Shown: positions 1 through 64,000 of the stretch, one piece after another | Position numbering within the stretch: position 1 is the stretch's first letter | Layout of the letters: every line of letters begins with the position of its first letter | Assembly: GCA_016188475.1 (NCBI GenBank) | Contig: JACPHT010000008.1 | Location: 150,192-214,191 of the forward strand | Reading direction: 5' to 3' | Length of the DNA stretch: 64,000 bases | DNA from: Candidatus Uhrbacteria bacterium | GTDB taxonomy: Bacteria > Patescibacteriota > Patescibacteriia > UBA9934 > GWF2-40-263 | The notes under the pieces: model-generated | The model's input: the letters and a program-made list of their open reading frames with translations, nothing else | What the model was told of the DNA's origin: nothing | The model's database searches: none | Translations under genes and position numbers: made by a program

Positions 1-231
1 AGTTTGAGAAAAAACTGGAATTTTTTTTTTATCAATCAATAAAAAATCTTTGCCGGCTTTGACTGAAACATTCCACTCGCGAAATACAGAATCGTATTTG
101 AGCAAATGCGCGAGAATTTTTGGTTCGGTTAAATCATTGATCGCGACAAACTCGATACCTTTTCTTTTCCAACCGACTTTAAGTGTTGTGCGGCCAATTC
201 GGCCAAAACCATTGATTGCGATGCGGAGCAT
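1..231 (-). CDS. gap: glyceraldehyde-3-phosphate dehydrogenase, N-terminal part; the gene runs off the window start
   Basis: Reverse-strand translation from ATG at 231 gives MLRIAINGFGRIGRTTLKVGWKRKGIEFVAINDL...LAHLLKYDS, the GAPDH NAD-binding N-terminus. It is missing from the ORF track because there is no in-window stop. Confidence 0.8.
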   Translation of the reverse strand, partial: MLRIAINGFGRIGRTTLKVGWKRKGIEFVAINDLTEPKILAHLLKYDSVFREWNVSVKAGKDFLLIDKKKIPVFSQT

Positions 232-235
232 AAAG

Positions 236-290
236 AAAGAAGCTGAAGAAGTTAGAGAAGTTAAAGAAGCTGAAGAAGTTAAAGATATTT
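236..290. repeat. Copy of the acidic EAEEV/EAGEA 15-nt periodic DNA motif (GAAGCTGAAGAAGTT...), just upstream of the gap start
   Basis: Seen directly; the same nucleotide motif recurs at 10988-11050, 12065-12098, 32941-32995, 33172-33212, 33655-33690 and 63598-63655. Confidence 0.5.
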
Positions 291-302
291 TAACATAAGC
301 AA

Positions 303-958: not shown

Positions 959-987
959 ATCCTTGTCCCATGCAGGATAACTGTACC

Positions 988-1965
988 TGTACAGTAACCC
1001 TTCAAGGGTGACAGTTTAGTGGGTTAGGGAGAGATATTTCTCATAAGGAGTAAGACCGTCCATGCCTTTTCCAAGGTGTGGTCTTTGGTTGTTATACCAA
1101 TTTGTATATTGAGAAATGGTTTTCCAAGGACGGTTGAAGTTTAGATAGAACTCATCATCAACGGAACGATTAGCACGTTCAACCTTTCCATTCCATGGAG
1201 CAGAACGTTTAGGAATATAACGATGAGGAATGTTTCGTTTTGTGAGGTAGTTATGGAAACATCCTCGAAACTCTCCTCCGTTATCTGTTTGAATCCATGT
1301 AATGGAGAAAGGTAGTGAACGCTCGGCTCTAAGTAGCGCCTGAATACTCATCTGTGCTGTCTTAAGTGGAAGTGTCACAGAATACTGCATGTTTGTAACA
1401 GTATCTACAAAACGGAACTGATAGTTCCACCATCCTTCACCATCTGGCACATATTTCACATCTAATTGCACGTTTTCTCCTGGATTTGTTGCTTTGTATG
1501 GTTTCTCCATTGGGTTATACCAAATCTGCTTCTTTTGAGGCTTACGGATGAGATGTTTCTTTTTCATGAACCTGTAAATGTTCTTGGCAGATATCTCGAC
1601 TCCTGTTTCACGCTTAAGGTACACACGCATCTTCTCTGGACCATAATTGTACTTCTCTTTAGCCTCAACAAGCAGAACACGAACTCTGTCTTTAATCTTT
1701 GTGTGTGGATGTTCTCTTCTGTTCTTATATCTGTTTCCAAGAAAACCGTGATCACGCTTGTACCATTTGTAATAGGTCTTTCTTGAGATCCCATAAATAT
1801 CGCATACTTCAGGAACATTCATTCCTTTTACTTCTACCTGACGGTACCAACGGAATCTAAACTCACGAGGAGCTGCTGGGGTATGATTTTTAGGCATATT
1901 TCAAGGGAGTTACCCTTTGTTACCCCTAACCTAGCAGATTGTCACCTCATAAGGGTAACTGTACA
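988..1965 (-). mobile_element. Complete IS481-family insertion sequence, 978 bp
   Basis: 15-bp terminal inverted repeats TGTACAGT(A/T)ACCCTT at 988-1002 and 1951-1965; 5-bp direct duplication GTACC at 983-987 and 1966-1970; single DDE transposase ORF inside. Confidence 0.8.
1016..1897 (-). CDS. IS481-family DDE transposase (HTH plus rve integrase core)
   Basis: 293 aa with an N-terminal HTH region and the motifs WQTDNGGEF and NGKVERANRSV typical of the rve core. Confidence 0.85.
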   Translation of the reverse strand: MPKNHTPAAPREFRFRWYRQVEVKGMNVPEVCDIYGISRKTYYKWYKRDHGFLGNRYKNRREHPHTKIKDRVRVLLVEAKEKYNYGPEKMRVYLKRETGVEISAKNIYRFMKKKHLIRKPQKKQIWYNPMEKPYKATNPGENVQLDVKYVPDGEGWWNYQFRFVDTVTNMQYSVTLPLKTAQMSIQALLRAERSLPFSITWIQTDNGGEFRGCFHNYLTKRNIPHRYIPKRSAPWNGKVERANRSVDDEFYLNFNRPWKTISQYTNWYNNQRPHLGKGMDGLTPYEKYLSLTH

Positions 1966-2171
1966 GTACCTTGACATTTTCGATCCTCCGTATTGCCGGT
2001 TATCTTTGGATTAACAACTGCAAATCAGCCGTCTCTCCTATCCCGACAAACAAAGCACACGTCGCGCGCTGTGGCACAATACCCCAGCCAAACGACAATT
2101 AAAAATAACAAAAACCGACTGTTTTGTCAACAGCCGATCATCCAAATTTTATACCCTGAGCTGGTCTCCCG

Positions 2172-2874: not shown

Positions 2875-2890
2875 ATAGAGAAATGTCTAA

Positions 2891-2914
2891 AAGGTCCGAA
2901 AGGACCGAGAGGTC
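2891..2914. repeat. 9-bp repeat-family copy (GGTCCGAAAGGACCGAGAGGTC) in the rpsB-tsf intergenic region; it forms GNRA mini-hairpins
   Basis: Seen directly. Confidence 0.5.
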
Positions 2915-4787: not shown

Positions 4788-5877
4788 ACATCGCGTCGCC
4801 AAAGGAAAAAAATCTGTATTTTTGAGCGACCGCTTCTTTGTACGCGCGCAAAACATTTTCTCTTCCAACAAAAGCTGAAACCAAAACCAACAATGTTGAT
4901 TTTGGTAAATGAAAATTCGTGATAAGTCCATCAATTATTTTGAAATCAAAACCTGGTTTGATAAATAAATTAACGTCACCTGTAAATGCGATAAAAGATC
5001 CTTCGCGGAGCTTACCCTGAGCAAAGTCGAAGGGCTCAGGATGACAACAAGAGGAAGCAACACCTTCAAGAGTCCGAACCGTTGTCGTTCCAACCGCGAT
5101 CACACGCCGTTTTTCTTTTTTTGCTTGATTGATTCGATCTGCAGTTTCTTTTGAAATCGAAACAAACTCGCTGTGCATTTCATGTTCTTCGATCGTTGCT
5201 GTTTTCATTGGACGAAAAGTTCCGATTCCAACATGAAGCGTTACAAATTCAAACTGAACGCCTTTTGATTTTAATTTTTCCATGAGATTTTCAGTGAAAT
5301 GAAACCCGGCTGTTGGCGCAGCAACAGAACCTGCCTCTTTTGCGTAAATGGTTTGATAATCTTCCAATCGCTCCGGCTTATTTTTGACGTAAGGAGGAAT
5401 CGGAATTTCGCCGTACTCATTTGCAAAAACGATAACGTCTTCTGGCGCGCGATCAAACTTCACTAAAACTATTCCGTCTGACTTTTTTTCAAAAACTTCA
5501 CAACAAAGTTTTTTAATCCCGTATTCGAGACAAATTGTCTGGCCGACTTGCACTTTTCTTCCTGGCCGCGCCATTGTTTCCCAAACATTATTTTCCCGAG
5601 CGCGCAACAAAAATATCTCAATCTCTGCTTTGACCTTTCCGACCTCTCGGTCATTTCCGACCTTTCCAATCATTCTTGCTCGAAAAACTTTCGTATCATT
5701 AAACACAAGTACGTCGCCTTCTTTAAGTTCATCAACAATCTCAAAAAATTTCTTGTGCTTCAACTTCCCTGTTTGCCTATCTAAAACCATTAGACGAGAA
5801 TGGTCGCGCGGCAAAATCGAATGTTGAGCAATCAATTCTTTTGGAAGATGATAATTGAATTCTTCAATTTGAGTCAT
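4777..5877 (-). CDS. queA: S-adenosylmethionine:tRNA ribosyltransferase-isomerase
   Basis: MTQIEEFNYHLPKELIAQHSILPRDHSRLMVLDR...VGTTTVRTLE; it carries an in-frame 9-bp repeat insertion at 5632-5667. Confidence 0.85.
   Translation of the reverse strand: MTQIEEFNYHLPKELIAQHSILPRDHSRLMVLDRQTGKLKHKKFFEIVDELKEGDVLVFNDTKVFRARMIGKVGNDREVGKVKAEIEIFLLRARENNVWETMARPGRKVQVGQTICLEYGIKKLCCEVFEKKSDGIVLVKFDRAPEDVIVFANEYGEIPIPPYVKNKPERLEDYQTIYAKEAGSVAAPTAGFHFTENLMEKLKSKGVQFEFVTLHVGIGTFRPMKTATIEEHEMHSEFVSISKETADRINQAKKEKRRVIAVGTTTVRTLEGVASSCCHPEPFDFAQGKLREGSFIAFTGDVNLFIKPGFDFKIIDGLITNFHLPKSTLLVLVSAFVGRENVLRAYKEAVAQKYRFFSFGDAMFIV
5632..5667. repeat. (GGTCGGAAA)n-family tandem repeat, in frame inside queA (encodes GKVGNDREVGKV)
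   Basis: Seen directly. Confidence 0.6.
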
Positions 5878-6220: not shown

Positions 6221-6330
6221 CAAAACCAAAAGCGTCTCTCACTTTGTGAAAGGCGCTTTTATGTTATTATTAAAATAATAAAATCCCTTACCACTCGCCC
6301 CTTTTCACTCGCCCACTGTCTTCAAAAACT

Positions 6331-7436: not shown

Positions 7437-7518
7437 AAAGAGCGGTTGTATCGTGTCGTAGGGAACAACGGCGACAGTCCGATGGCCCGGAGACACGATA
7501 CAACCGCTCTTTTTTAAC
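7437..7518 (+). repeat. Long-stem hairpin element, copy 1, with conserved core GTCGTAGGGAACAACGGCGACAGTCCGATGGCCCGGAGAC; followed by a T-run, so it is a likely prfA terminator
   Basis: A ~20-bp stem (aagagcggttgtatcgtgtc / gacacgatacaaccgctctt) encloses the conserved core, then ttttttaacc. Confidence 0.6.
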
Positions 7519-8736: not shown

Positions 8737-9086
8737 TAACAACACTTAACTGATTATGTTATTATCAAATATGTCTCTGTTCGCCGACATCCGCAGACTG
8801 CTTGCGTAACCGTTTGGTTTACAACGTCGCCTCACACAGTCGAGGAGTCGAAGAGCTGTGAGAAGCCAACTGCTTGGCTTCGAACCTCTGAGACGGGCTT
8901 TGTCCGATGTTCGACATAGTTGTCGAACAGGACAGCCCCTAAGCCGCCACCACTCACACTGGCTATCATTTTCGACACACGGCGGCGGTCAAGAACAGAG
9001 ATATATTTGATAATAACAATCTGTCCATTCTCGAAGCCCTTCAATGGGCGAACAACAAACTCAAAAAAGCTGGCATTGAGTCTCCA

Positions 9087-9932: not shown

Positions 9933-10984
9933 TTTTCGATTTTCAAATCCGAATCATCAGCGATCACTTCTATCCATGTTACTCCGGCGTTCAATTCAAA
10001 TTCATTTCCGTCCGTACCATAGAACCTTAGCCTGTTGCTTTCCGATTCTTTTTTCCAAATTCCTTCAAACTGTTTTCCATCGCGAAACAAAAACGCCTTC
10101 CCTTCTCCTATTGTTCGAACACTTCGACGGCCTACTGAATCTAAAATTTCAACATCCGTTACAATTACGACTATGTTATCAGACGCGATTTGTGATCCAT
10201 CTTCCGTAAGATGAACCGACCCGCTTTGTGAACGCAAATACCGGAGTGTTTTTGAATCAAAAATCCATTGTGTCACATAAGAAGGCTTGTCGAACGTAAC
10301 AGATATTTTTTTTACTTCTGGATCACCAGACAAATCCGCGTCTTTGAACTTCCAAATATCGTACAATCTTTTAGGCACGACTCCTGCCTGTTCTTTTGTT
10401 CCAATATACCGCTTCAGCAACTTTGTTGACGTATAAACATTGTGTGGCGCGTAACGATTAAGCGCGCGCCAAAAATATAAATCAAACCAATACTGATTCA
10501 AATCAAAAGTCCCGCCAGAGGAAATTTGATCAAGAGCTGAATCAGAACCTCCAACATGAACATATAGCCCATCAAGTTCGTTGTTCCAATCCAAAAAATA
10601 CGGACGCGCTGAACGAACCGGACCGATCTTATCCACATCTTGATCGTCTGAATAAAACGCAAGAAAACGAGAAATTCCAGCTTCAACTGGCGCTTCAATC
10701 ACAAGAAACGCCTTATCAATACCAGCTTGCGGCCAAGCGTCAATGTGATTATCTATCATTACACCAAAAACTTGTGGCAACTCCATTTGTTCGTAGATAG
10801 GAAATCCAGTTAAAGGATGACGACCTACTGAAACTTTAGACGAGCTATTGCCAGACGGTGTTGATGATGAAACTTTTTCAACAAGCCCAGGCAAACGCGC
10901 CGCAAACAAAAACGCAATCGCGATGGCAATTGCCACGATTGCGTAATATGTTCTTGTATTCAAATTAAGCTTTAACTTTTTCAT
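9929..10984 (-). CDS. DUF3048 (YerB-like) secreted/anchored protein
   Basis: Signal/TM segment MKKLKLNLNTRTYYAIVAIAIAIAFLF followed by a DUF3048-like core; its start codon overlaps the last codons of rplY by 20 nt. Confidence 0.55.
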   Translation of the reverse strand: MKKLKLNLNTRTYYAIVAIAIAIAFLFAARLPGLVEKVSSSTPSGNSSSKVSVGRHPLTGFPIYEQMELPQVFGVMIDNHIDAWPQAGIDKAFLVIEAPVEAGISRFLAFYSDDQDVDKIGPVRSARPYFLDWNNELDGLYVHVGGSDSALDQISSGGTFDLNQYWFDLYFWRALNRYAPHNVYTSTKLLKRYIGTKEQAGVVPKRLYDIWKFKDADLSGDPEVKKISVTFDKPSYVTQWIFDSKTLRYLRSQSGSVHLTEDGSQIASDNIVVIVTDVEILDSVGRRSVRTIGEGKAFLFRDGKQFEGIWKKESESNRLRFYGTDGNEFELNAGVTWIEVIADDSDLKIEN

Positions 10985-11684
10985 TTGAAGGTTGAGCGGC
11001 CTTTCCTGCCTCTCCAACTTCTCCAGCCTCTCCAGCTTCTTCCTCTTCATCCTTCTTCTTGCCAGCCATTTCCACTGCACTGACATCGACATCAACAGCC
11101 TTGTCAAGTTCCGCCATCTCTTCCTCTGAACGAGGAGCCTCGACTCCAGCGATTGAAAGTGTTGGTTGGTCAAGGATCGTCATGCCTTCTGGAATAACTA
11201 AATCTTTAACGCGAATTGTATCTTCAAAAGTTGCCAAACCAGAAATATCAACAGCTAAACTTCGAACAAGTTTGGCAGGCAGACATCGAACAGTCACATA
11301 ATCTCGTGAAAGAACAAGTGTTCCGCCAAGAGCTTTGACAGCAGGAGATTCCCCAACAACTTCAAGATCAACATCGGCTTCAATTTCCTTGTTCATATCA
11401 ATCGATCGAAAGTCAACGTGAGTAACTTCGTTAAGAAGTGGATCGATTTGAGTGTCCTGAATCAAAACATGGAGAGGTTCGCTTTCTCCTATTGAAAGTT
11501 CAACAATCGAACTTTCTCCAGCTTGACCGTAGGTCTTCAAAAAAGCATTTCGATTGATCGTTATTGATGAAGGCTGAATGCCTGAACCGTACACGACCGC
11601 CGGAATCGCTCCAGAGGCTCGTAATTGTCGAGTCTTTCTTCCAACAAGATTTCTTTGTTGTGCTTGTAAAATATGTTCTGACAT
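10965..11684 (-). CDS. rplY: 50S ribosomal protein L25/Ctc with an acidic EAGEAGEVGEAG C-terminal tail
   Basis: MSEHILQAQQRNLVGRKTRQLRASGAIPAVVYG...; the tail is encoded by the EAGEA DNA motif. Confidence 0.8.
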   Translation of the reverse strand: MSEHILQAQQRNLVGRKTRQLRASGAIPAVVYGSGIQPSSITINRNAFLKTYGQAGESSIVELSIGESEPLHVLIQDTQIDPLLNEVTHVDFRSIDMNKEIEADVDLEVVGESPAVKALGGTLVLSRDYVTVRCLPAKLVRSLAVDISGLATFEDTIRVKDLVIPEGMTILDQPTLSIAGVEAPRSEEEMAELDKAVDVDVSAVEMAGKKKDEEEEAGEAGEVGEAGKAAQPSNEKVKA

Positions 11685-12049: not shown

Positions 12050-12093
12050 AGTTGTTTTACATTATCACACACGCTTCAGCTTCTTCAACCTCT

Positions 12094-13215
12094 TCAGCTT
12101 CTCTTTTCATGAATAACAATGCTCTGAACGATCCCAAGCAAGATCAAAAATAATGCCGCTGAACTTCCGCCATAACTCACAAGAGGCAAACCAATTCCAG
12201 TAACTGGAAAAAGACCAAGATTCATTCCAATGTTCACAAGTATTTGAAGAAAAAAAGTGCTTGCAATACCAATAACCAAAAAAGCGGAAAAATTATCTCT
12301 TGAAGTTCGAATAATAAAAGCAAATCTCAAAAAAAGCAAAGCAAACGCTCCTAAAACCAAAATAACTCCTAGTAAACCTAATTCTTCTGCTATAACAGCA
12401 AAAATAAAATCATTCTGACTTTCTGGAAGAAATTTCAACTGACTTTGCGATCCAAATCCAAGCCCGCGCCCGAACCAACCACCAGCTCCTATTGCAATTA
12501 TCGCTTGACTTACGTTGTATCCTTGACCAAGAGGATCAAAAGTTGGATTAAAAAAGGTTAGAATACGAGCTTTTTGATATGCGGCAAAAAGAAACTTCCA
12601 TGAAAATAGAAACAATACTGAAAAAATTCCCGTAAGCGATGCAATAAACCTAAAACGCATACCAGCAAACAATGTAAAACAAAACCATATACCTGCCAAA
12701 ATAAGCGCGGAACCAAAGTCTGGCTGGAGTAAAGTCAAAACAATTGGAACAAAAGAAATCAATGCGCTTTCCAGACATTCGCGCAAACCAAATAACGGCC
12801 GTGCCCTTTGACTAAAATAAGAAGCCAGAGAAAGAATTAAAACAAGTTTCATGTATTCGACCGGCTGAACGCTCACAAGATCAAACACAAACCAACCTCG
12901 CGCACCACGAACAGTTGTTCCAAAAAATAAAACAGCGACAAGAATCACTACTCCAAAAATATAAAGTATCAAACTGTAATTACGAAGAAGTTTGTAATTT
13001 GATGTTGCAACAAAAAATGCCAAAATTCCTGCCGCAACAATGGCAAAAAGTTGTTTCTTTATGTTAAAAAGTTCTGCGCCACGCGAAAGATCAACAGAAT
13101 AAATAGCGGCAAGGCCAAACAAAACAAAAACAAAACCCGCAAGTACAATCAACCAATCAGCGCCTCTCAATTTTCTAACTTTAAGACTTATTAGCCGAAA
13201 AATGGACGTTATCAT
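12094..13215 (-). CDS. SEDS-family cell-wall polymerase (FtsW/RodA)
   Basis: Ten-TM profile with family motifs. Confidence 0.8.
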   Translation of the reverse strand: MITSIFRLISLKVRKLRGADWLIVLAGFVFVLFGLAAIYSVDLSRGAELFNIKKQLFAIVAAGILAFFVATSNYKLLRNYSLILYIFGVVILVAVLFFGTTVRGARGWFVFDLVSVQPVEYMKLVLILSLASYFSQRARPLFGLRECLESALISFVPIVLTLLQPDFGSALILAGIWFCFTLFAGMRFRFIASLTGIFSVLFLFSWKFLFAAYQKARILTFFNPTFDPLGQGYNVSQAIIAIGAGGWFGRGLGFGSQSQLKFLPESQNDFIFAVIAEELGLLGVILVLGAFALLFLRFAFIIRTSRDNFSAFLVIGIASTFFLQILVNIGMNLGLFPVTGIGLPLVSYGGSSAALFLILLGIVQSIVIHEKRS

Positions 13216-16302: not shown

Positions 16303-16503
16303 ATGAAGTCTCTAAGACTTTTCCAATATTTTAAAGAGTCAAAAGAAGAGCTCAAAAAGGTCACATGGCCTTCAAGGCAAGAAATCAACAAGTATTCATT
16401 GATTATAATTCTCCTAAGTCTTATAATAGCTGGTTTCTTCGGTGGGCTTGATTGGCTACTTAATCTTGGACTTGAAAAACTCATTGAGATTACAGCAAAA
16501 TAA
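16303..16503 (+). CDS. secE: preprotein translocase subunit SecE
   Basis: Single C-terminal TM segment; sits upstream of nusG. Confidence 0.75.
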   Translation: MKSLRLFQYFKESKEELKKVTWPSRQEINKYSLIIILLSLIIAGFFGGLDWLLNLGLEKLIEITAK

Positions 16504-16547
16504 CTCCATTGACTCCAAAACTTCATTGACTACATTGACTCTCCTCT

Positions 16548-17638: not shown

Positions 17639-18016
17639 ATGTCCACAAAAGGAGGCTCGGTCATTTTGCGAATTTATTTCGCGCTTGTATCGTTCGTGAC
17701 ACTTATGATGCTCGTTTTTTCAGTGTCAGATTTAATAAACGTTGCTCTTAAAACTTACGTGTTCAAATTTGCTGACGCGCCAGAATACCCGATGTACTGT
17801 GAACCGCAATTCATAAAAGAGAATGTCAAAGAAACGGCTGAAGAAACGGAAGCGCGTTGCGCCCGTAACAAAGAACAAGAGAAACAATCGGCGATCGTAC
17901 GCAAGCAACAGTCTCTTGTGCGTGATATCTCGATGCTGATTGTCAGCCTCCCGTTGTTCTTCATTCATTTCCGAATTGTGCTAAGAGACTGGAAAGAGAT
18001 GAAAAAAGAAGTGTAA
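17639..18016 (+). CDS. hypothetical small 2-TM membrane protein inserted between rplK and rplA
   Basis: ORF plus TM segments. Confidence 0.35.
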   Translation: MSTKGGSVILRIYFALVSFVTLMMLVFSVSDLINVALKTYVFKFADAPEYPMYCEPQFIKENVKETAEETEARCARNKEQEKQSAIVRKQQSLVRDISMLIVSLPLFFIHFRIVLRDWKEMKKEV

Positions 18017-18028
18017 AATATAGCATTG

Positions 18029-18118
18029 CCTGAGCCTGTCGAAGGCAGTAAAGATTATAGCCTGAGCCTGTCGAAGGCAGTAAAGATTATAGCCTGAGCC
18101 TGTCGAAGGCAGTAAAAA
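18029..18118. repeat. Three tandem copies of a 32-bp unit (CCTGAGCCTGTCGAAGGCAGTAAAGATTATAG); a related single copy lies at 58731-58751
   Basis: Seen directly; the copies are contiguous with no spacers. Confidence 0.7.
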
Positions 18119-18172
18119 ATACTTTAATTAAAAATAGTGGGAGTCTAAAAGACGCCAATACCACAAACTAAT

Positions 18173-18853: not shown

Positions 18854-18962
18854 GAAAACGGCCTGTTGGCCGCTTTTCTTTTTCTCTTCTTCCGTATACC
18901 CTATTTCTATCTTTCTTTATTTCCTTACCACTCACCCCCTATCTCCCTTCCATCCTTTCCAT

Positions 18963-20674: not shown

Positions 20675-21046
20675 TTATGACGAATCTGTCAATGTTGGCT
20701 TGACAAAAACAAGATCATCACTCGCACCAAACGTGAGGCCGGATCTGGAATCAATCCGATCAAAATTTCGAGCAACGAGTGGGCAGTAATGCTCAAATTC
20801 ACATTCGCCTTGTGGCTCGACTCCGCTGAAGGACAGAAGTACACGACGGTCGGAGATTCCAACCGACACCTCGACAATGGCCAGATCGGAACAATAAATG
20901 GCGTCCCGGTCATTGTCGTCCCAAATCTTGAGGATCGTCTGCCAACCCCACCATCTGGTGTTAGGTAGCCGTTCTTTCTCCACCCATGTCCGACTAGGGC
21001 GTGGGTGCTTTTTATTTTCGATAAAAAAACTTAATTCATATTTCAC
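20675..21046 (-). CDS. hypothetical protein; first gene of the GC-rich cassette
   Basis: ORF. Confidence 0.35.
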   Translation of the reverse strand: MKYELSFFIENKKHPRPSRTWVEKERLPNTRWWGWQTILKIWDDNDRDAIYCSDLAIVEVSVGISDRRVLLSFSGVEPQGECEFEHYCPLVARNFDRIDSRSGLTFGASDDLVFVKPTLTDSS

Positions 21047-21077
21047 TTAACTACCGATCGGGAGTTAAGTGTGATAA
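21044..21077. repeat. Palindromic element, copy A (CACTTAACT(A/C)CCGATCGGGAGTTAAGTGTGAT)
   Basis: 28-bp hairpin with one mismatch plus a TGTGAT extension. Confidence 0.7.
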
Positions 21078-21662: not shown

Positions 21663-21693
21663 TCACACTTAACTCCCGATCGGGAGTTAAGTG
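21661..21693. repeat. Palindromic element, copy B (AATCACACTTAACTCCCGATCGGGAGTTAAGTG), between convergent gene ends
   Basis: Perfect palindrome seen directly. Confidence 0.7.
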
Positions 21694-21694
21694 T

Positions 21695-22609
21695 TTACAG
21701 TTGTCTCAAAACGTTCTTCAACATACGACATGCTTCTTCTGTGGTTTCGTATTTGATGTGATAAACAATTGCTGGATTTCCAAGCGCAAAATTTGAAATC
21801 ACTGAATCTTTTTTTGAAATAAGCACGATTGGTTTTTCAAACATGTAAGCGAGAACGAGTTCGCCACCAGCTCCCAAAGATGGATTTGAAACATCAGCTA
21901 TGAGCACATCACAATTTTTGATTTTATTTTCAGTCCAATCATAAACCGCGCGAACGTCACGCTCTTCGCGTGGTTTTTTATTTTCAGGATTATCACGAAA
22001 TGGAATTATTGGTTCACAACCTAATTCATCACACACACGACCAAGCGCTTCGTGAACAACTTTATCATCAGCCAAACCATTATTGTTTGTATACGATCCA
22101 GCTATGTAGGCTGATTTTACAGTTGGTTTAAGTGTTTTTGAATACACTCTATCGCGATTAAACTCAACATGTGCGTTTGCTAGTAAATACACATTGCGAA
22201 TTCCATTTTCAATCATCACGTTCCAACATTGCTCGCAACACCACCAATGGCCGTACAAATAAATATCCGATCCTGACGGATCAATTCCCGACTCATTTGC
22301 AACAGCAATTACCATTTGTTCTGCATGTCCTGGAGCGTCGTGTAAATGACACAAATCATATCCTGTTCCACTAGGACACTCCAACACAACTCGAGGACAA
22401 ACATGTCTCGTGCCAGAACCTTTATTAAACCCATTTCCGGCTCGAGTGAAAATTTTTCCGTCTCTAACTAACACTGCTCCAACTGGATACAACCTGTCGC
22501 CTGCACAATCCTCGCGTGCGCGCGCCGCTTCTTGCATGAATGGATCGTCCGCACTGACAAAATAAAAAACTTTTCCATCAGGCAAAAATGGATACTCTAT
22601 TTCTGGCAT
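21695..22609 (-). CDS. Fusion protein: dCMP (cytidine/deoxycytidylate) deaminase domain plus a nucleoside 2-deoxyribosyltransferase-like (Rcl/DNPH1-like) domain
   Basis: Zinc motifs HAEQMVI and PCxxC-type WWCCEQC in the N-terminal half. The C-terminal half has AYIAGSY...SLGAGGELVLAYMFEKPIVLI, matching the NDT-family Rossmann signature. Confidence 0.65.
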   Translation of the reverse strand: MPEIEYPFLPDGKVFYFVSADDPFMQEAARAREDCAGDRLYPVGAVLVRDGKIFTRAGNGFNKGSGTRHVCPRVVLECPSGTGYDLCHLHDAPGHAEQMVIAVANESGIDPSGSDIYLYGHWWCCEQCWNVMIENGIRNVYLLANAHVEFNRDRVYSKTLKPTVKSAYIAGSYTNNNGLADDKVVHEALGRVCDELGCEPIIPFRDNPENKKPREERDVRAVYDWTENKIKNCDVLIADVSNPSLGAGGELVLAYMFEKPIVLISKKDSVISNFALGNPAIVYHIKYETTEEACRMLKNVLRQL

Positions 22610-23996: not shown

Positions 23997-24006
23997 GTCA
24001 TATTGT

Positions 24007-24038
24007 GGAAAGGTCTGAAAGGACCAAAAGGTCGAAAA
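24007..24038. repeat. 9-bp repeat-family copy (GGAAAGGTCTGAAAGGACCAAAAGGTCGAAAA) in the thyA 5' region
   Basis: Seen directly. Confidence 0.5.
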
Positions 24039-31521: not shown

Positions 31522-33618
31522 ATGCCAAAAAAACAAGAAAACCCAGTTAAAGAGGCTCGTGAGGAATCATCAAAGAGCCCGATGTTCACAAACATTGAAA
31601 CCGCTGAAGTTGAGATGACAACGTATGAATTCGGATCGGAAGTCGAATCAACTCGTTCAGATGGAGAACTTGTTCAGGAGATTGTAATTGGAAATTCTGG
31701 ATCAAAAGAAAACGCAACTGTCGTTCTTGCGCGAAAAAGTGAAGCTGGACCACTTTTGCGTGTTGTAGGCAGCGATGAACTTGCATCAAGTGTAAGGACT
31801 GATCATCAACTTGAATTATATTCTGATGCTGTCATTTCAGCGGCTGAGTCTGCTGTGAAAGCGGCTGGTTTGAAAGGCAATGAAGCAAAAGAAGCATTGG
31901 CGCTTCTTGCTGAAGAAGCTCCAAAAGTTATTGCAAAAGCAATGGGAGAAAAAAATCCTGAGAAAGCTCTTTCTGACTTTGTCCTTGAAGAAGCGCGGGC
32001 CGTTGCTAGTGGTAAGAGTGAAAAATCTGTTTTGAGTCTTGAAGCTCTCACAGAACAATTGGCTCATGCTAGACAAAAAGCCGATACTGCAAAAAATGAT
32101 CGAGAATATAAAGCGGCGCTTGTTGAAATTCATGCTGTTGAAAAAGCCGTTTATGAAACGCGCGTCGCCTTAAATCCTGACGCTTCAAAAAAAGAAAAAA
32201 TCGAAATCGCAAATCAGGTTGATGGAGCTGTTGAATTAATTCCAGATCCACTTTACGAAGATGGTTATAAGGCTGTTAAAAATCGAATTGTTGAACTTGA
32301 AAAAATAATGAAAGATGCAGATAAAAACAAGGACGGAGTTGCGTGGACTGTTGCGCGAAACGAATACGATCGTCATCGCGCAATATTGCCAGTCCTAGAA
32401 AAAGTTGAAATGGTATTGGATGTGAAAGCTCAAATTGATGCAATGATCGCAGAAAAAATCTGGGAACAAAACGAGTACTCTTCCAAAAAACGAGAAAAAG
32501 GAACAATGCAAAAAAAGTTCTGGAAAGGAGTTATTGAAAGACAAGAAAAGCTTCAGAGAACAATTGAGGATGGAATCATGGTGTTAACTCAAAAACAAAA
32601 TGAAGATACTGGCAAAGACATAGAAAAACTTGAAGCAAAACGGCTTGAATCTCTTGAATTTCTTCAAACAGCACAAAAAAACATCCAAAAAGTTGAAAAA
32701 GAAATGGAAGAACTTGAAAACATGGGTGTGCTTATTGATTTTGATACTGAAGAAAAACCAAACGAAGCTCGATCAGCTCTTTATTTCCAACTGATGGATA
32801 CATACAAAGAAAATCCAAAAGAAGTGATGAATTACATTGACGGAATGATCAAGAGTAAAAAAGTTAACACGTCAACTCTCGGAATACTGAAGGCGGTCAA
32901 GGAAGTTATAAGAGTGATGGAATCACAGCCAAAAGTAGAACAGAAAAAAGAAGCTGAAGAGGCTAAAAAAGTTGGAGAGGCTGGAGAAGTTAAAGAAATT
33001 CCAAAAACAAAACAAGAAGCAAAAGTAATTCCAATAGAACCAAGATTGCGAAAAACAAGAAAAGAAACTTTGAAACCTGGTACTGTGATCGAATCAGTGT
33101 TTGAAACAAAACAAGCTGAAAAAACCGGCCTTAAACCAGGAGACATTGTTGAATCTGTGATGGAACCAGAAGAAGTTGAAGAAGTTAGAGAAGCTGAAGT
33201 GGTTGGAAAAGAGAACAGTCAGGAACGTAACACTGACGAGATTAAAATAATTGATTATTCAAATGAAAAAGTCCAAGATCTCATAAACGCAGGAATCGTA
33301 GAGAACGCTGGCGAATTGGAACTTTATGAGCGTTTATACATTGAACTATATATTGCGCTTGATTCACTTGGACTAAAACCACAAGACGAAGGTTTGCCTT
33401 CGAGTTTTGAAGAAATGGTAAACACAAAAGATTCACGAGGAATTTTTGGAAAAATGTTTGGCGCAAAAACAGAGCGAGTCAAGCTGTTCAACAAACTTAA
33501 AGAAGCTCACTACACATATATAGATTCTGGAAAAGTTGATATTGGAAGCGTTCTAAAAAGACAACACAGACGCTATGAAGATTACGAAAGTTCGATGAGA
33601 AGCGCTGGAAAATTCTAA
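31522..33618 (+). CDS. large hypothetical coiled-coil protein; its C-terminal third carries two copies of the EAEEV/EAGEA DNA motif
   Basis: 698-aa ORF, K/E-rich and helical. Confidence 0.5.
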   Translation: MPKKQENPVKEAREESSKSPMFTNIETAEVEMTTYEFGSEVESTRSDGELVQEIVIGNSGSKENATVVLARKSEAGPLLRVVGSDELASSVRTDHQLELYSDAVISAAESAVKAAGLKGNEAKEALALLAEEAPKVIAKAMGEKNPEKALSDFVLEEARAVASGKSEKSVLSLEALTEQLAHARQKADTAKNDREYKAALVEIHAVEKAVYETRVALNPDASKKEKIEIANQVDGAVELIPDPLYEDGYKAVKNRIVELEKIMKDADKNKDGVAWTVARNEYDRHRAILPVLEKVEMVLDVKAQIDAMIAEKIWEQNEYSSKKREKGTMQKKFWKGVIERQEKLQRTIEDGIMVLTQKQNEDTGKDIEKLEAKRLESLEFLQTAQKNIQKVEKEMEELENMGVLIDFDTEEKPNEARSALYFQLMDTYKENPKEVMNYIDGMIKSKKVNTSTLGILKAVKEVIRVMESQPKVEQKKEAEEAKKVGEAGEVKEIPKTKQEAKVIPIEPRLRKTRKETLKPGTVIESVFETKQAEKTGLKPGDIVESVMEPEEVEEVREAEVVGKENSQERNTDEIKIIDYSNEKVQDLINAGIVENAGELELYERLYIELYIALDSLGLKPQDEGLPSSFEEMVNTKDSRGIFGKMFGAKTERVKLFNKLKEAHYTYIDSGKVDIGSVLKRQHRRYEDYESSMRSAGKF

Positions 33619-33651: not shown

Positions 33652-35457
33652 TCAAGCTTCTTTAGCCTCTCCAGCTTTTTGAACTTCTTTAATAAGCTGA
33701 TCCTGCGCGATTGTCAAATGTTCTTCTTGTCCGAAAACATTCACATCAAACGCACTGCCTTGCGTTTCCTTTTCACCGATTACAATCGTCCATGGAATTT
33801 TCATCATTGCCGCATTTCTAATTTTCTTTCCGACTTTCACATCAGAAAAATCTGATTCTACTCGAACACCAGCATCAAAAAGTTCTGTTTTTAACTTTTG
33901 CGCAAATGCAACAAAATCTTCACTCACAGTCGCAAGACGAATCTGTACTGGCGCAAGCCACATTGGAAACGCTCCACCGTAATGTTCAATCAAAATTCCC
34001 ATAAACCGTTCTGTTGAACCAAGAATCGCTCGGTGAATAACAACTGGACGTTTTACTTTCCCATCACTATCCGCATATTCGAGTTCAAACCGTTCAGGCA
34101 AATTCATGTCAAGTTGAATTGTGGACAGTTGCCACTGTCTTCCAATTACGTCGCGTACCATAAAATCGAGCTTTGGACCATAAAACGCGGCTTCGCCAAC
34201 ACCAACTTCCTTTTTCCAACCTCGACCCTCAACAAGACGTGCAAGCGCGGCCTCTGACTCTTCCCAAATTTGTGGATCGCCAATATATTTTTCACGATTA
34301 TTTGGATCGCTTGTTGAAACGCGAACCCAAAAATCTTTGAAACCAAAAGCGCGATATGTTTCATCGATCATGTCCAACATCAAATTTATTTCTTGTTCAA
34401 TCTGATCCGATTTCAAAAATACATGACAATCATCTTGAGTTAGCGAACGAACGCGTGTGAGCCCTGACAATTCCCCGCTTTTTTCATAGCGATAACATGA
34501 AGTTGTGCAAGTCCAACGCATTGGCATATCGCGATATGAATGCGCAGTGGATTTATAAAGCATCATGAAGTGCGGACAATTCATTGGCTTGAGATAATAT
34601 TGTGCTTCAGCAGGCAAATCCATTGGAGGATACATTGCGTCATACTTTTGCAAATGCCCTGAAATTTCGTACAACTTTCCTTTTGTAATATGCGGAATCC
34701 AAATCGGGACATATCCTCTTTTCTCTTGCTGTTCCATAATAAAATTCTCGATTAGCCGGCGAAGAACAGCGCCTTTTGGATAAAAAAGTGGAAGACCTGG
34801 CCCGACTTCATCAATAATTGTAAATAGTTCCAGATCTGTTCCGAGTTTTCTGTGATCTCGTTTTTTAGCTTCTTCAAGCATTATGAGATACTCGTCGAGT
34901 TCTTTTTGTGTTTCAAAAGCAAGACCATACACGCGTTGCATTTGAGGATTTTTTTCATTACCTCGCCAATAGGCTCCTGCAATTTTCCAAAGTTTAAACA
35001 CACCAATGTCTTTCACGTTTTCGATGTGCGGACCGCGACAAAGATCTGTAAACGATCCTGTGTGATAAAGAGTCGCGACATCTGGTTTGGAAATATCAAG
35101 ATCTTGCGCTTCGTCTGTTTGAATTTTTGTCGTGCCTTTTTCTTTCAAATCCTTCAACAACTCAACTTTGAAATCCTGTCCGCGTTCTTTGAAAAACGAA
35201 ACGGCTTTGTCGAGCGAAATCTCCTCGCGAACCATCTCGTGTTTTTCCGAGATAATTTTTTTCATTTCTTTTTCAATCACGGCCAGCCCTTCGTCAGAAA
35301 TCGGTTCTGGAAACAAAATGTCATAATAAAACCCGTTTTCAACAACAGGTCCAACACCAAATTTTGCTCCTGGATAAAGCCGCTCAACAGCCGCGGCCAA
35401 AACGTGCGCGGCAGTATGTCGCATTGTGTGAAGATTGTCATTCATATTATTAAACAA
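33652..35457 (-). CDS. thrS: threonyl-tRNA synthetase with a short acidic C-terminal tail (QKAGEAKEA) from the repeat motif
   Basis: MRHTAAHVLAAAVERLYPG... and class-II synthetase motifs. Confidence 0.9.
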   Translation of the reverse strand: MFNNMNDNLHTMRHTAAHVLAAAVERLYPGAKFGVGPVVENGFYYDILFPEPISDEGLAVIEKEMKKIISEKHEMVREEISLDKAVSFFKERGQDFKVELLKDLKEKGTTKIQTDEAQDLDISKPDVATLYHTGSFTDLCRGPHIENVKDIGVFKLWKIAGAYWRGNEKNPQMQRVYGLAFETQKELDEYLIMLEEAKKRDHRKLGTDLELFTIIDEVGPGLPLFYPKGAVLRRLIENFIMEQQEKRGYVPIWIPHITKGKLYEISGHLQKYDAMYPPMDLPAEAQYYLKPMNCPHFMMLYKSTAHSYRDMPMRWTCTTSCYRYEKSGELSGLTRVRSLTQDDCHVFLKSDQIEQEINLMLDMIDETYRAFGFKDFWVRVSTSDPNNREKYIGDPQIWEESEAALARLVEGRGWKKEVGVGEAAFYGPKLDFMVRDVIGRQWQLSTIQLDMNLPERFELEYADSDGKVKRPVVIHRAILGSTERFMGILIEHYGGAFPMWLAPVQIRLATVSEDFVAFAQKLKTELFDAGVRVESDFSDVKVGKKIRNAAMMKIPWTIVIGEKETQGSAFDVNVFGQEEHLTIAQDQLIKEVQKAGEAKEA

Positions 35458-35540
35458 ACAAGGAGATAAGGGGTGAGTGGTAAGAAGATAAAGAGAAGTT
35501 TATCGTAAATAGCGTAATAAACGCAAGATGCAAAATATGT

Positions 35541-35623
35541 AAACAGAAGCGATAGCGTCATGTCGTAGGGAACAGCGGCGAGGAGTCCGCTGGCCCGTAG
35601 ACATGGCATGTCGCTTCTGTTTG
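35541..35623 (+). repeat. Long-stem hairpin element, copy 2 (core GTCGTAGGGAACAGCGGCGAGGAGTCCGCTGGCCCGTAGAC)
   Basis: Same core as copy 1 in a different, self-complementary stem. Confidence 0.6.
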
Positions 35624-37017: not shown

Positions 37018-37096
37018 AAAAGAGCAGTTTGTACTATGTCGAAGGGAACAACGGCGAAGAGTCCGTTGGCCCGGAGACATGGTACAAACTGCTCGA
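37015..37096 (+). repeat. Long-stem hairpin element, copy 3 (core GTCGAAGGGAACAACGGCGAAGAGTCCGTTGGCCCGGAGAC); acts as a terminator for the minus-strand gene 37204-37815
   Basis: 20-bp stem; the A-run on the plus side is a U-run on the minus transcript. Confidence 0.6.
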
Positions 37097-41000: not shown

Positions 41001-41517
41001 CACCAAATATCTCTACATACTCGCGAACAATTTCTTCAACCCTTTCCGACTTTTCAGACCTTTCCGATCTTGCTCTTATTGCTTCATCAATCTCACCTTG
41101 ATATCCACCTGAAAGCGCGATCAATCCTTTTGAATACTGACGTAAAACTTCCAAATCAATTCTTGGCTTGTAATAAAATCCTTCGAGAAATCCGACTGAG
41201 GAAAGATGGATCAAGTTTCGATAACCTTCTTCATTTTGCGCAAGACAAACAAGATGAAATGGTTTTGTATCAATGTGCGCGCGTTTCAAATAACGTCCTT
41301 CGCGCGAAAGATAAAAATCAACTCCGATGATTGGTTTGATTCCTGCGTCTTTTGCTTTTTGATAAAATTCCATCGCACCATACATCGCGCCATTATCAGT
41401 AAGCGCCACAGAATCCATACCGCAATTTTTGACATGCGAAATAATCTCTTTGATTTTCGGAAGAGCCTCGAGAAGCGAATAGTGTGAATGGGTGTGAAGG
41501 TGGACGAAAGAGGACAT
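38023..41517 (-). CDS. dnaE: DNA polymerase III alpha subunit, with an in-frame 9-bp repeat insertion (RARSERSEKSERV)
   Basis: PHP domain MSSFVHLHTHSHYSLLEA...; length 1164 aa. Confidence 0.95.
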   Translation of the reverse strand: MSSFVHLHTHSHYSLLEALPKIKEIISHVKNCGMDSVALTDNGAMYGAMEFYQKAKDAGIKPIIGVDFYLSREGRYLKRAHIDTKPFHLVCLAQNEEGYRNLIHLSSVGFLEGFYYKPRIDLEVLRQYSKGLIALSGGYQGEIDEAIRARSERSEKSERVEEIVREYVEIFGDGNFFLELVDRPEIAEQESTNAQLIELGKKMNVPIVATKNTLYLKPQDAEAWKILNCIKGGKTLEHFERINPYDYDASMVSAQYMEERFADVPEAIENTRRIADRCLLELELGKWNFPKFEIPEGQTFRQVLTQRAEQQLAEKEGPLTDVMEQRLAYELEIIDQKGFCPYFLIVSDFINWARSNGIVTTTRGSAAGSLVSYGIGISSINPLTYELPFERFLNPERPSAPDIDTDFADNRRDEVLDYVRGKYGQEKVSQICTFGTMLARGSVRDVGRALGFPYPMVDEIAKLVPMGSQGFPMTLTRALNEAPDLKKKFDTDANVRRIIDLAKQIEGCARHVSIHAAGAVIAPTDLTDFTPLQIDTREGKVITQYEMHAVETAGLVKMDFLGIRNLSILGDAVALVKKLKGIEIDIERIPINDKKTFSLLAKGHTMGVFQLNGEGMTKYLMDLKPERVEDLMAMVALYRPGPIESIPEYIKRKHDTSLISYLDPRMEPILKMSYGVIVYQDDVMLTAIHLGGYSWLEADKLRKAMGKKIPAEMALQKIKLLEGFIAHGLTDDKARQLWKLIEPFAAYGFNKSHAASYGMVAYQTAYMKANFPAEYMTALMTAEAGDLEKIAEAVHECERLGIEVLSPDINESRKDFTFMNDKQIRFGLLVVKNLGEEVVASIITERKNNGPFKDLSDFAGRISHHAFNKKSLEALIKSGALDRFGERRQLFENVDRILMHNKSIQKEISSNQQSLFSSSPTVMDSAITLRETEPAGIQELLAWEKELLGLYLSAHPFEQSASVLGPLIVPCAKVKDHPSSKLIHCGGVITAIKEIITKKGEPMAFVSVEDATGVVELVLFPEVFTRSKFSLQLDQLTLVSAKVSRRNGELSLLANGLIGYTEDQLPQLVQMLSRGQWADPKTVVAQVPVITGTLSIALQGNPAPELVSRLREILQRSPGQTSVCLLVESGGRVRQIETDYSVFISDEIVDEIASLVGRQNVKVT
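41041..41069. repeat. 9-bp tandem repeat, in frame inside dnaE
   Basis: Seen directly. Confidence 0.6.
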
Positions 41518-41525
41518 ATGTGTAC

Positions 41526-41577
41526 TTCCGACTTCTGATTTCTGATTTCTGATCTCTGATCTCCGATCTCTGATTTA
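41526..41577. repeat. 7-bp tandem repeat (TCTGATT-like, about 7 units) in the dnaE 5' leader
   Basis: Seen directly. Confidence 0.6.
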
Positions 41578-41961: not shown

Positions 41962-41967
41962 AGAAAA

Positions 41968-42006
41968 AAGGTCTGAGAGGACGGAAAGGACGGAAAGGAC
42001 GGAAAT
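41968..42006. repeat. (GGACGGAAA)n tandem 9-mer repeat, abutting the pheT stop codon
   Basis: Seen directly. Confidence 0.6.
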
Positions 42007-42007
42007 G

Positions 42008-58706: not shown

Positions 58707-58760
58707 GCCCTTCGACTTCGGTAAAGTTATTGCCTGAGCCTGTCGAAGGCCATAACTTTA
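58707..58760 (+). terminator. Hairpin containing the TTGCCTGAGCCTGTCGAAGGC repeat unit, downstream of radA
   Basis: agcccttcgac ... gtcgaaggcc inverted repeat. Confidence 0.35.
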
Positions 58761-60967: not shown

Positions 60968-61000
60968 CACTTAACTCCCGATCGGGAGTTAAGTGTGATT
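60968..61000. repeat. Palindromic element, copy C (CACTTAACTCCCGATCGGGAGTTAAGTGTGATT), upstream of recG and downstream of the tRNA cluster
   Basis: Seen directly. Confidence 0.7.
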
Positions 61001-63584: not shown

Positions 63585-64000
63585 AATGTTTCTTTAGCTT
63601 CTGCAACTTCTTTAGCTTCTCCAGCTTCTTGAGCTTCTTCGCTCTCCTCGAATTCTTTCTTCGCTCGTTCTATTTCGAGTAGTTGCTGTGGACTCGTTGT
63701 GACAAGCTGATCTTCTGTGTACGAAGCTACAACTTTAATTGCCGCGTGTTTTTGTCCTGCAAAGAAAATCCCTTCTCCAACACCGGATTCAAGCAATAAA
63801 TATTTTTCACCATCTGTAAGATTAAAAGTTTTTTGAATAAGATCAATCGATGATGGCGATTGTTTTAATAAGAGTTGCAAAGCGGAGTTAGTTACAATCG
63901 CCTGCCCATACGGCGAGCGCAAAAAGTCATTCACGTCTTGGGTGATAGTCGTAACTCCAAGCCAATACTTTCGCGCGCGTTTAACAAGCGCGAAAATAAA
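63581..64000 (-). CDS. Probable C-terminal part of a larger protein running off the window end; its tail is reminiscent of VirB4/TrbE-like transfer ATPase C-termini; acidic EAGEA tail
   Basis: TFNLTDGEKYLLLESGVGEGIFFAGQKHAAIKVVASYTEDQLVTTSPQQL; the frame may stay open to the window edge. Confidence 0.3.
   Translation of the reverse strand, partial: FIFALVKRARKYWLGVTTITQDVNDFLRSPYGQAIVTNSALQLLLKQSPSSIDLIQKTFNLTDGEKYLLLESGVGEGIFFAGQKHAAIKVVASYTEDQLVTTSPQQLLEIERAKKEFEESEEAQEAGEAKEVAEAKETL

Follow-up and report, generated by a model that had tools for sequence, protein, structure and literature searches.

The stretch of DNA analysed here, 64,000 nt from a groundwater Candidatus Uhrbacteria genome of the Candidate Phyla Radiation (CPR, Patescibacteria) and called the window below, has a GC content of 41% and carries at seven sites short tandem arrays of a 9-nt unit. 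The consensus of the unit is GAAGCTGAA, with variants GARGYTRRA, and its translation is Glu-[Ala/Val]-[Glu/Gly/Lys/Arg]. The sites are the leader of gap, the tail of rplY (ribosomal protein L25/Ctc), the end of ftsW/rodA with the spacer that follows it, two linkers of a 698-aa protein that has no Pfam match, the end of thrS, and the region near the C-terminus of a VirB4/TraC-like ATPase (Table 1). A first-pass annotation had claimed that a sequence with a 15-nt period recurs at seven sites, and all seven exist: at up to three mismatches, the two 15-mers quoted in it, GAAGCTGGAGAGGCT and GAAGCTGAAGAAGTT, match the window 17 and 37 times, compared with 0.95 and 4.0 matches expected from shuffles of the window. 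Tandem Repeats Finder (TRF), however, assigns every site a period of 9 nt and a super-period of 18 nt. The copies span 27-54 nt, and those in coding sequence are all sense-oriented and all in the Glu-[Ala/Val]-x frame, while two copies (gap leader and ftsW spacer) are non-coding. The motif had also been described as grafted onto the 3' ends of genes; this is true of thrS, but half of the coding copies are internal linkers.

The copies resemble each other as DNA and not through convergent peptide composition. Their summed pairwise nucleotide score is 350, whereas peptides back-translated with the window's own codon usage give 217+-14, codons shuffled inside each site 206+-11 and shuffled residues 179+-12; none of 2000 replicates reached the observed score in any of these three controls, and it lies about 9 standard deviations above the control for peptide plus codon usage. 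Codon choice within the motif is nearly exclusive, with GCT for 17 of 18 Ala residues, against 28% in the background and also 28% after Glu outside the motif (P=5e-9), GTT for 11 of 11 Val, GGA for 9 of 9 Gly and AGA for both Arg residues. A Lys/Glu-rich insert in gyrB can be used as an internal control: it is ancestral and common to relatives, and its codons are mixed, with GCC in Glu-Ala-Glu and Lys mostly as AAG. Because the score exceeds the codon controls, the codons are so uniform and those of the gyrB insert are not, a family related at the DNA level is supported. The same view had been taken beforehand, together with the proposal that the gyrB insert is related at the amino-acid level only and that the copies should be compared with shuffled sequence of the same composition; the first two views are borne out by the figures above, and the comparison with shuffled sequence fails to refute the DNA-level relationship.

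Chance, base composition or misassembly would be the most trivial explanation, and we regard its probability as practically negligible. A degenerate 24-mer, GARGYTRRAGARGYTRRAGARGYT, does match many phyla among those listed (Prevotella, archaea, actinobacteria), in Glu/Ala-rich genes, but the shuffling and resampling controls reject chance, and the copies recur in independent data: the VirB4-like tail is identical in three assemblies of the same species (L206-L208; loci of relatives are given by such L numbers), and the exact L25 protein, 100% identical to MBI2475483.1, is found on 4 contigs. A protein-level explanation deserves more attention. Selection may favour acidic Glu-Ala/Val-x tails and linkers for solubility, spacing or electrostatic repulsion, with the codons reflecting preference or tRNA supply; the single sense frame of the coding copies, the acidic disordered nature of the host segments, which is kept as a feature in relatives, and the fact that most motif codons (GAA, GTT, GGA, AAA) are the commonest ones all agree with this idea. 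We nevertheless consider it unlikely, since GCT (28%) and AGA (17% of background Arg codons) are not preferred codons, the acidic gyrB insert of the same genome uses mixed codons, and the same tails are filled with other sequences in relatives. Moreover, two copies are non-coding, the gap copy being antisense in a leader and the ftsW-spacer copy of L004 having TAG in the motif frame, and what the third residues E, G, K and R have in common is RRA codons and not chemistry.

Table 1. Copies of the Glu-Ala repeat family and other features, by position in the window
Feature	Position	Strand	TRF call (period 9 and 18)	Pattern-scan run	Remarks
gap-leader copy	236-286	+	236-285	239-283	five units: GAAGCTGAA GAAGTTAGA GAAGTTAAA GAAGCTGAA GAAGTTAAA
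rplY copy	11004-11048	-	11004-11040	11004-11039	peptide EEEEAGEAGEVGEAG, then conserved KAAQPSNEKVKA and stop; within acidic C-terminal tail of L25/Ctc
ftsW/rodA copy	12072-12104	-	12074-12096	12075-12101	three units; overlaps stop codon
698a copy	32947-32997	+	32947-32996	32950-32994	peptide KEAEEAKKVGEAGEVKE; hypervariable linker of 698-aa protein
698b copy	33166-33207	+	33169-33199	33172-33198	peptide PEEVEEVREAEVVG; second hypervariable linker of 698-aa protein
thrS copy	33652-33678	-		33652-33669	three units = final residues and stop (KAGEAKEA, stop)
VirB4/TraC-like ATPase copy	63590-63640	-	63590-63640	63593-63637	five units near C-terminus; peptide EEAQEAGEAKEVAEAKETL, stop
gap start	231	-			ATG
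rplY gene	10965-11684	-			Pfam L25p (PF01386) and TL5_C (PF14693)
ftsW/rodA gene	12094-13215	-			
Gene after ftsW spacer	12049				ATG
698-aa protein gene	31522-33618				
Small ORF MRSIKKEAEEVREVKEAEEVKDILT, stop	221-298	+			rejected as conserved gene
Small ORF MKREAEEVEEAEACVIM, stop	12110-12057	-			rejected as conserved gene
GGAAAGGTC family, QueA	5632-5675	-			sense; read as GKV
GGAAAGGTC family, MiaA	29221-29264	-			sense; read as GKV
GGAAAGGTC family, DnaE	41039-41073	-			sense; read as SER
GGAAAGGTC family, PheT	43843-43886	-			sense; read as GLK
GGAAAGGTC leader, tsf	2880-2914	+			pyrimidine-rich on minus-strand mRNA
GGAAAGGTC leader, thyA	24008-24033	+			pyrimidine-rich on minus-strand mRNA; real thyA start ~24005-24007
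GGAAAGGTC leader, 99-aa gene	41966-42009	+			pyrimidine-rich on minus-strand mRNA
Insertion sequence	987-1966				between tsf and gap
Transposase gene	1016-1897	-			293 aa, HTH/rve_3
7-nt repeat, dnaE leader	41533-41576				seven copies of AGARATC (mRNA strand)
Leader motif CTTACCACTC[A/G]CCCC	~6280-6330, 18903-18962, 35458-35510				upstream of prfA, dcd, thrS
Short repeats	16503-16541				upstream of nusG
32-nt unit ATTGCCTGAGCCTGTCGAAGGCAGTAAAGATT	18025-18120, 58729-58760				three tandem copies, fourth dispersed
Palindrome CACTTAACTCCCGATCGGGAGTTAAGTG	21044-21075, 21666-21697, 60968-60999				perfect; intergenic
Small intergenic repeats	7441-7474, 35548-35581, 37024-37057, 8839-8910				

One important characteristic of the family is its restricted distribution. 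The pattern GARGYTRRAGARGYT occurs at 7 sites in the 64-kb window; in near relatives (35 kb) it occurs twice, in the orthologous ftsW spacers of L001 and L004; it occurs at no site in 33 kb orthologous to the thrS region, where the window holds 3 sites, and at none in 908 kb of distant Patescibacteria loci. When runs were defined by the peptide (E[AV]x), none longer than two units was found in 1.06 Mb of relatives, the third residues there being hydrophobic and GCT making up 16%. As the matches of the degenerate 24-mer indicate, this type of sequence is common across phyla; its concentration in the window genome is not. Judging from these comparisons, the motif family is young and lineage-specific, and in the literature we found no description of such repeats in CPR.

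The host sites show how the arrays have changed among relatives. In rplY, an acidic E/A/G/K tail follows the L25p and TL5_C domains in 120 of 120 Uhrbacteria/Patescibacteria homologues inspected, so the tail is ancestral. The site is exactly the acidic low-complexity tail of Ctc-type L25 proteins, and this tail is the host and not the phenomenon: it is filled with GAAGCTGGA-type units only in this lineage, and the same units stand in unrelated genes. Within the tail the motif is internal, and the conserved ending (QPSNEKxKx, stop) comes after it. Units of the GAAGCTGGA type are also present in the L25 tails of the near relatives L001, L005, L214 and L215, and the rplY tail is the most widely shared location of the motif. 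In the VirB4-like ATPase, every relative carries a long acidic tail of hypervariable sequence; the closest one, L213, has GAAGCTCAAGAAGCTAAAGAA there, the window is longer by 27 nt (3 units), and L212 has its own separate 4-unit version. The stop codon of this gene overlaps the ATG of the next. Both copies in the 698-aa protein lie in indel-rich linkers, while the rest of the protein is 75-82% identical among relatives. At the first linker the window has a net gain of 45 nt compared with its closest relative L126, and L129 carries an insert of unrelated sequence there; at the second, L126 has a hairpin-forming patch, described below, plus two units, and L129 has neither. Two extra copies were found outside the window, one in the linker of an M23 peptidase (L206:2138-2180), which is 25 residues longer than in L213, and one in an FtsK linker on L069, a 41%-GC Uhrbacteria contig that is probably from the same assembly as the window.

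At the remaining three sites the copy touches a gene end or a leader. The thrS product ends in KAGEAKEA in the window and in ASKQK in five orthologues at 92-95% identity. The nucleotide alignment with these orthologues breaks off at 33674-33692 and picks up again in the terminator, which they have in common; thrS has gained a true new 3' end of six residues. In ftsW the motif begins at the final codon and lies in +1 against the FtsW reading frame, and AGC TGA inside it supplies a Ser and the stop codon, so that the protein ends in IHEKRS; the remainder is spacer before the next gene. This copy is shared with L001-L004 (L25 85-90% identical), which have 4 units instead of 3, and it is absent from L005, L006, L007 and L215, where other purine-rich repeats occupy the same spot. 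We rejected a frameshifted ancestral acidic tail of FtsW, because the protein ends in HEKR[Q/S] in every relative, including those that have no motif, and has no acidic tail. The small open reading frame (ORF) over the spacer was likewise rejected as a conserved gene, as it has TAG in frame in L004 and a different start in L001. The gap copy occupies 52 nt between the conserved -10 element and the ATG, antisense to gap. In L006 the -10 element TAAAAT is about 9 nt from the ATG and there is no motif, and L004 has an unrelated 48-nt hairpin insert in its place; read as RNA, the leader of the window is CU-rich and unstructured, with a fold of -1 kcal/mol, compared with -14.5 in L004. A small ORF here overlaps the gap start in antisense and was rejected as a conserved gene.

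These comparisons modify several details of the first-pass annotation. The copy at 12065-12098, called intergenic, is mostly spacer but overlaps the FtsW stop codon; the one at 236-290, called upstream of gap, is indeed upstream, with the precise position and orientation given above; and the rplY copy is in the tail but does not form its end, as KAAQPSNEKVKA comes after it. The suggested creation of acidic C-terminal extensions is true of thrS, whereas the L25 and VirB4-like tails, ancestral and hypervariable, have only been rewritten and FtsW has gained none; this outcome comes from comparing C-termini among relatives, as had been advised for rplY and thrS. The suggestion of a spreading sequence is right as to recent gains at thrS, 698a (+45 nt) and the gap leader (absent from L004 and L006), but it is not supported as to a discrete element, since terminal repeats, conserved flanks and shared blocks are lacking. 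As possible side effects, the copies may have given thrS its new terminus and stop codon, ftsW a new stop codon, the spacer behind ftsW a -35-like hexamer, and gap its unstructured CU-rich leader.

Anatomy of the arrays bears directly on how they arise. Third-codon identity is 0.39 within sites, against 0.255 expected (P=0.01), and this greater uniformity within than between sites suggests that slippage lengthens the arrays where they stand. Between orthologous arrays, length differs in whole units (3 versus 4 in the ftsW spacer, 27 nt in the VirB4-like tail and 45 nt at 698a), and close relatives are polymorphic for the insertions in the gap leader, in thrS and at 698a. Multi-unit blocks common to different sites number 0, against 1.4 expected, and the copy-paste test is accordingly negative. 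We found no conserved ends, inverted repeats or duplications in 10 copies aligned with their flanks, no flanking direct repeats suggesting target-site duplication on reading of the flanks, and no palindrome or significant RNA folding in any copy (z -1.4 to +1.0); Rfam recognizes only three tRNAs above gathering thresholds in the window.

The explanation that we favour, and believe about as much as we doubt, is a slippage-driven family of short tandem repeats that starts in Glu-rich tracts and is now and then copied from one locus to another. Arrays would begin in tracts rich in GAA/GAG, that is, in Glu-rich disordered tails and linkers, and would lengthen or shorten in place by whole units through replication slippage or unequal pairing; such seeding would account for the single Glu-[Ala/Val]-x frame and the sense orientation of the coding copies, and it is supported by the host sites, which already have an acidic or hypervariable character in relatives. 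The general excess of period-9 arrays described below also speaks for slippage. From time to time units would be copied to non-allelic positions, through short-patch conversion or template switching where GAAG microhomology exists, and would so have reached the end of thrS, the stop codon and spacer of ftsW, and the leader of gap. Copying between loci does occur in the window genome, where it is seen directly only for a second 9-nt family (GGAAAGGTC, below). Selection would act only as a filter, copies staying wherever the site can accommodate non-coding DNA or a flexible, hydrophilic peptide, and the motif peptides probably have no dedicated function but are a by-product of repeat slippage and not a designed protein motif. 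While the DNA-level relationship, the lineage specificity, the unit-wise length changes and the sites of gain are direct observations, that slippage drives the process and that template switching disperses the units is what we infer from them.

The best-known parallel is the slippage-generated, codon-homogeneous low-complexity region ("cryptic simplicity"), for which codon homogeneity has been discussed as a signature of slippage (PMC10124876). The Glu-Ala family works like such a region in every respect that can be checked: its units are head-to-tail and a multiple of 3 in length, one codon is used per residue, length changes by whole units among close relatives, and the sites are disordered tails and linkers. 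It differs in that the same 9-nt unit stands at at least nine unlinked loci, including non-coding ones and one antisense copy, that its units are diverse at non-synonymous and fixed at synonymous positions, and that it is part of a clade-wide excess specifically of period-9 repeats.

Several observations weigh against the favoured explanation. The gap-leader copy lacks a Glu-rich seed and runs opposite to local transcription, and the thrS end was not acidic beforehand; for these two copies, therefore, in-place slippage alone is insufficient. Differences between units within an array appear to exceed the divergence of the flanks, and the additional 27 nt of the VirB4-like tail would need at least 5 changes from the neighbouring units. 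In the set of 39 units, which includes the two extra loci, the synonymous positions 6 (T in 36 of 39) and 9 (A in 39 of 39) vary far less than do 5 (C/T), 7 (G/A) and 8 (A/G), which are non-synonymous, position 3 (A/G) also being variable. Departures from the consensus comprise 49 transitions and 7 transversions, compared with a genome-wide ratio of about 1.6, an excess that is due in part to the pattern by which the copies were found and is counted as a hint only. Together, the constancy of these positions and the transition bias hint at some further constraint, and no enzyme or repair defect favouring 9-bp steps was identified.

A diversity-generating retroelement target was considered and rejected, because the copies vary by A<->G and C<->T changes at fixed unit positions and no reverse transcriptase lies among the Pfam-annotated neighbours of the copies. 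Collagen-like Gly-X-Y and CsrA-type GGA arrays were rejected on anatomy.

Another reading is that of a true mobile module, in which a dedicated activity would move a short cassette (about 30-55 nt) and insert it in either orientation, selection keeping it pyrimidine-rich before starts and purine-rich in ORFs. In its favour, the presence of the copies in thrS, at 698a and in the gap leader varies from one close relative to another, and a second 9-nt family of the window, GGAAAGGTC (25 matches versus 0.76 expected), behaves in just this way. It is read in three frames in QueA, MiaA, DnaE and PheT; its patch in QueA is a net gain of 33 nt over L004 and L006 and matches MiaA over 27 nt with 1 mismatch. 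In reverse orientation it forms CU-rich leaders of 3-4 units for tsf, thyA and a 99-aa gene, each with its end 3-5 nt ahead of the ATG. These leaders are exchanged among relatives: dnaE of L126 has a 5-unit copy, while the 99-aa gene of L126 has an AGGAG leader instead; the tsf leader is of this family in L004 and another Y-rich repeat in L006; and the tsf leader of the window matches the L126 dnaE leader over about 32 nt with about 3 mismatches (by reading). The family is spread across the subclade. The Glu-Ala family itself, unlike GGAAAGGTC, keeps its coding copies in one frame only, and it lacks terminal repeats, target duplications, conserved ends and multi-unit blocks common to sites. 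Neither a reverse transcriptase nor another candidate enzyme is found among the Pfam-annotated neighbours of the copies. An insertion sequence (IS) footprint was rejected as the source of 9-bp steps, as the sole IS in the window duplicates about 3-4 bp (by reading). For the Glu-Ala family, a mobile module is therefore rather improbable.

The IS between tsf and gap is bounded by imperfect terminal inverted repeats of 43 nt; L004 and L006 lack it at this position.

A precedent for selfish repeats inserted in frame in unrelated genes is known in the Rickettsia palindromic elements (RPE; PMC10969869). The likeness is considerable, as both are dispersed DNA repeats translated inside unrelated housekeeping proteins, vary in presence among relatives and are tolerated at surface or flexible positions. 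The RPE, however, are about 150 bp, palindromic and of defined length, whereas the Glu-Ala motif is purely tandem and has neither a palindrome nor defined ends. Closer to the RPE than the Glu-Ala motif is the hairpin-forming patch GAAGGCTTTAGCCTTC (EGFSLPE or PGFSLG), found in frame in differing hypervariable linkers and tails of relatives: L126 (second linker of the 698-aa protein), L129 (first linker), L213:8339-8360 and proteins P0128, P0151, P0155 and P0158. It is absent from the window.

Period-9 arrays in general are the commonest tandem class in the window. The window has 22 of them per 64 kb; the figure falls to 17.6 in near, 10.3 in mid and 5.4 in distant relatives and to 4 after shuffling of the window, which amounts to an approximately 4-fold excess in an Uhrbacteria subclade (loci L001-L007 and L126-L213), while other repeat periods show no difference among window, relatives and shuffle. 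It can be imagined that a subclade-wide process, relying on some 9-bp-stepping enzyme, makes and disperses 9-bp-period modules in either orientation as one bidirectional leader and peptide cassette system, of which the Glu-Ala motif is one family; we give this idea a modest, minority chance. In the same tentative scheme, the pyrimidine-rich orientation would serve as Shine-Dalgarno-independent leaders (gap, tsf, thyA and the 99-aa gene, and dnaE in a relative) and the purine-rich one as hydrophilic inserts and tails of ORFs (Glu-Ala-x; GKV, SER and GLK).

The copies may alternatively act as an RNA- or DNA-level signal, such as a purine-rich element binding protein or ribosomes, a translational coupling signal or a promoter element. 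The near-invariance of synonymous positions 6 and 9 is in accordance with this; so is a -35-like TTGAAG in the ftsW-spacer copy, 16 nt upstream of TG-GATAAT and ahead of a Zn-ribbon gene and rplY (a consensus match only), and so is the unstructured CU-rich gap leader in a genome where Shine-Dalgarno-like sequences are uncommon. The distance to the next start, however, ranges from 9 to more than 80 nt, and thrS has no downstream gene, on which grounds a Shine-Dalgarno or coupling role was rejected; positions relative to stops are equally inconsistent, orientation varies by site, neither significant RNA structure nor an Rfam family is found in the copies, and close relatives have no copy at the same loci. 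A signal function is thus decidedly unlikely.

DNA uptake sequences (uptake signal sequences, USS, or DUS) are over-represented oligomers that bias coding frames and occur roughly once per kb. The Glu-Ala motif resembles them as a short oligomer over-represented in a lineage and lying within genes in a tolerated frame; it differs in being tandem, confined to acidic tracts and present at about 1 site per 9 kb, and this identity was rejected, the 7 sites in 64 kb being clustered and all in acidic tracts or spacers.

Genomes of CPR/Patescibacteria are small and thought to be streamlined, and yet essential genes are being rewritten at their ends, loops and leaders by short repeats between close relatives: thrS, rplY and ftsW by the Glu-Ala family, and queA, miaA, dnaE and pheT by its sister family GGAAAGGTC. 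If the slippage explanation is right, much of the tail and insert sequence regarded as CPR-specific in these proteins would be mutational filler and not adaptation, and such segments would be poor markers for homology or structure prediction. The clade would then be a natural system for studying what sets the 9-bp step in repeat formation and how leaders are built in Shine-Dalgarno-poor bacteria. If slippage is the wrong reading and a dedicated mechanism exists, the repeats would represent a new type of very small mobile sequence. Most worth following are the period-9 excess and the leader/insert duality of the GGAAAGGTC family.

Other short repeats of the window concern leaders and intergenic DNA. 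A Shine-Dalgarno-like tetramer lies within 20 nt of only about one-fifth of predicted starts, and many leaders are pyrimidine-rich or built of repeats. The 7-nt repeat of dnaE stands directly upstream of its ATG, where the closest relative has a GGAAAGGTC-family leader. One pyrimidine-rich motif is shared by the leaders of prfA, dcd and thrS, and further short repeats precede nusG and the genes at 17639 and 26994. A 32-nt unit and a perfect palindrome occur in four and three copies, respectively, and the small intergenic repeats have related copies 3' of thrS in L127-L130.

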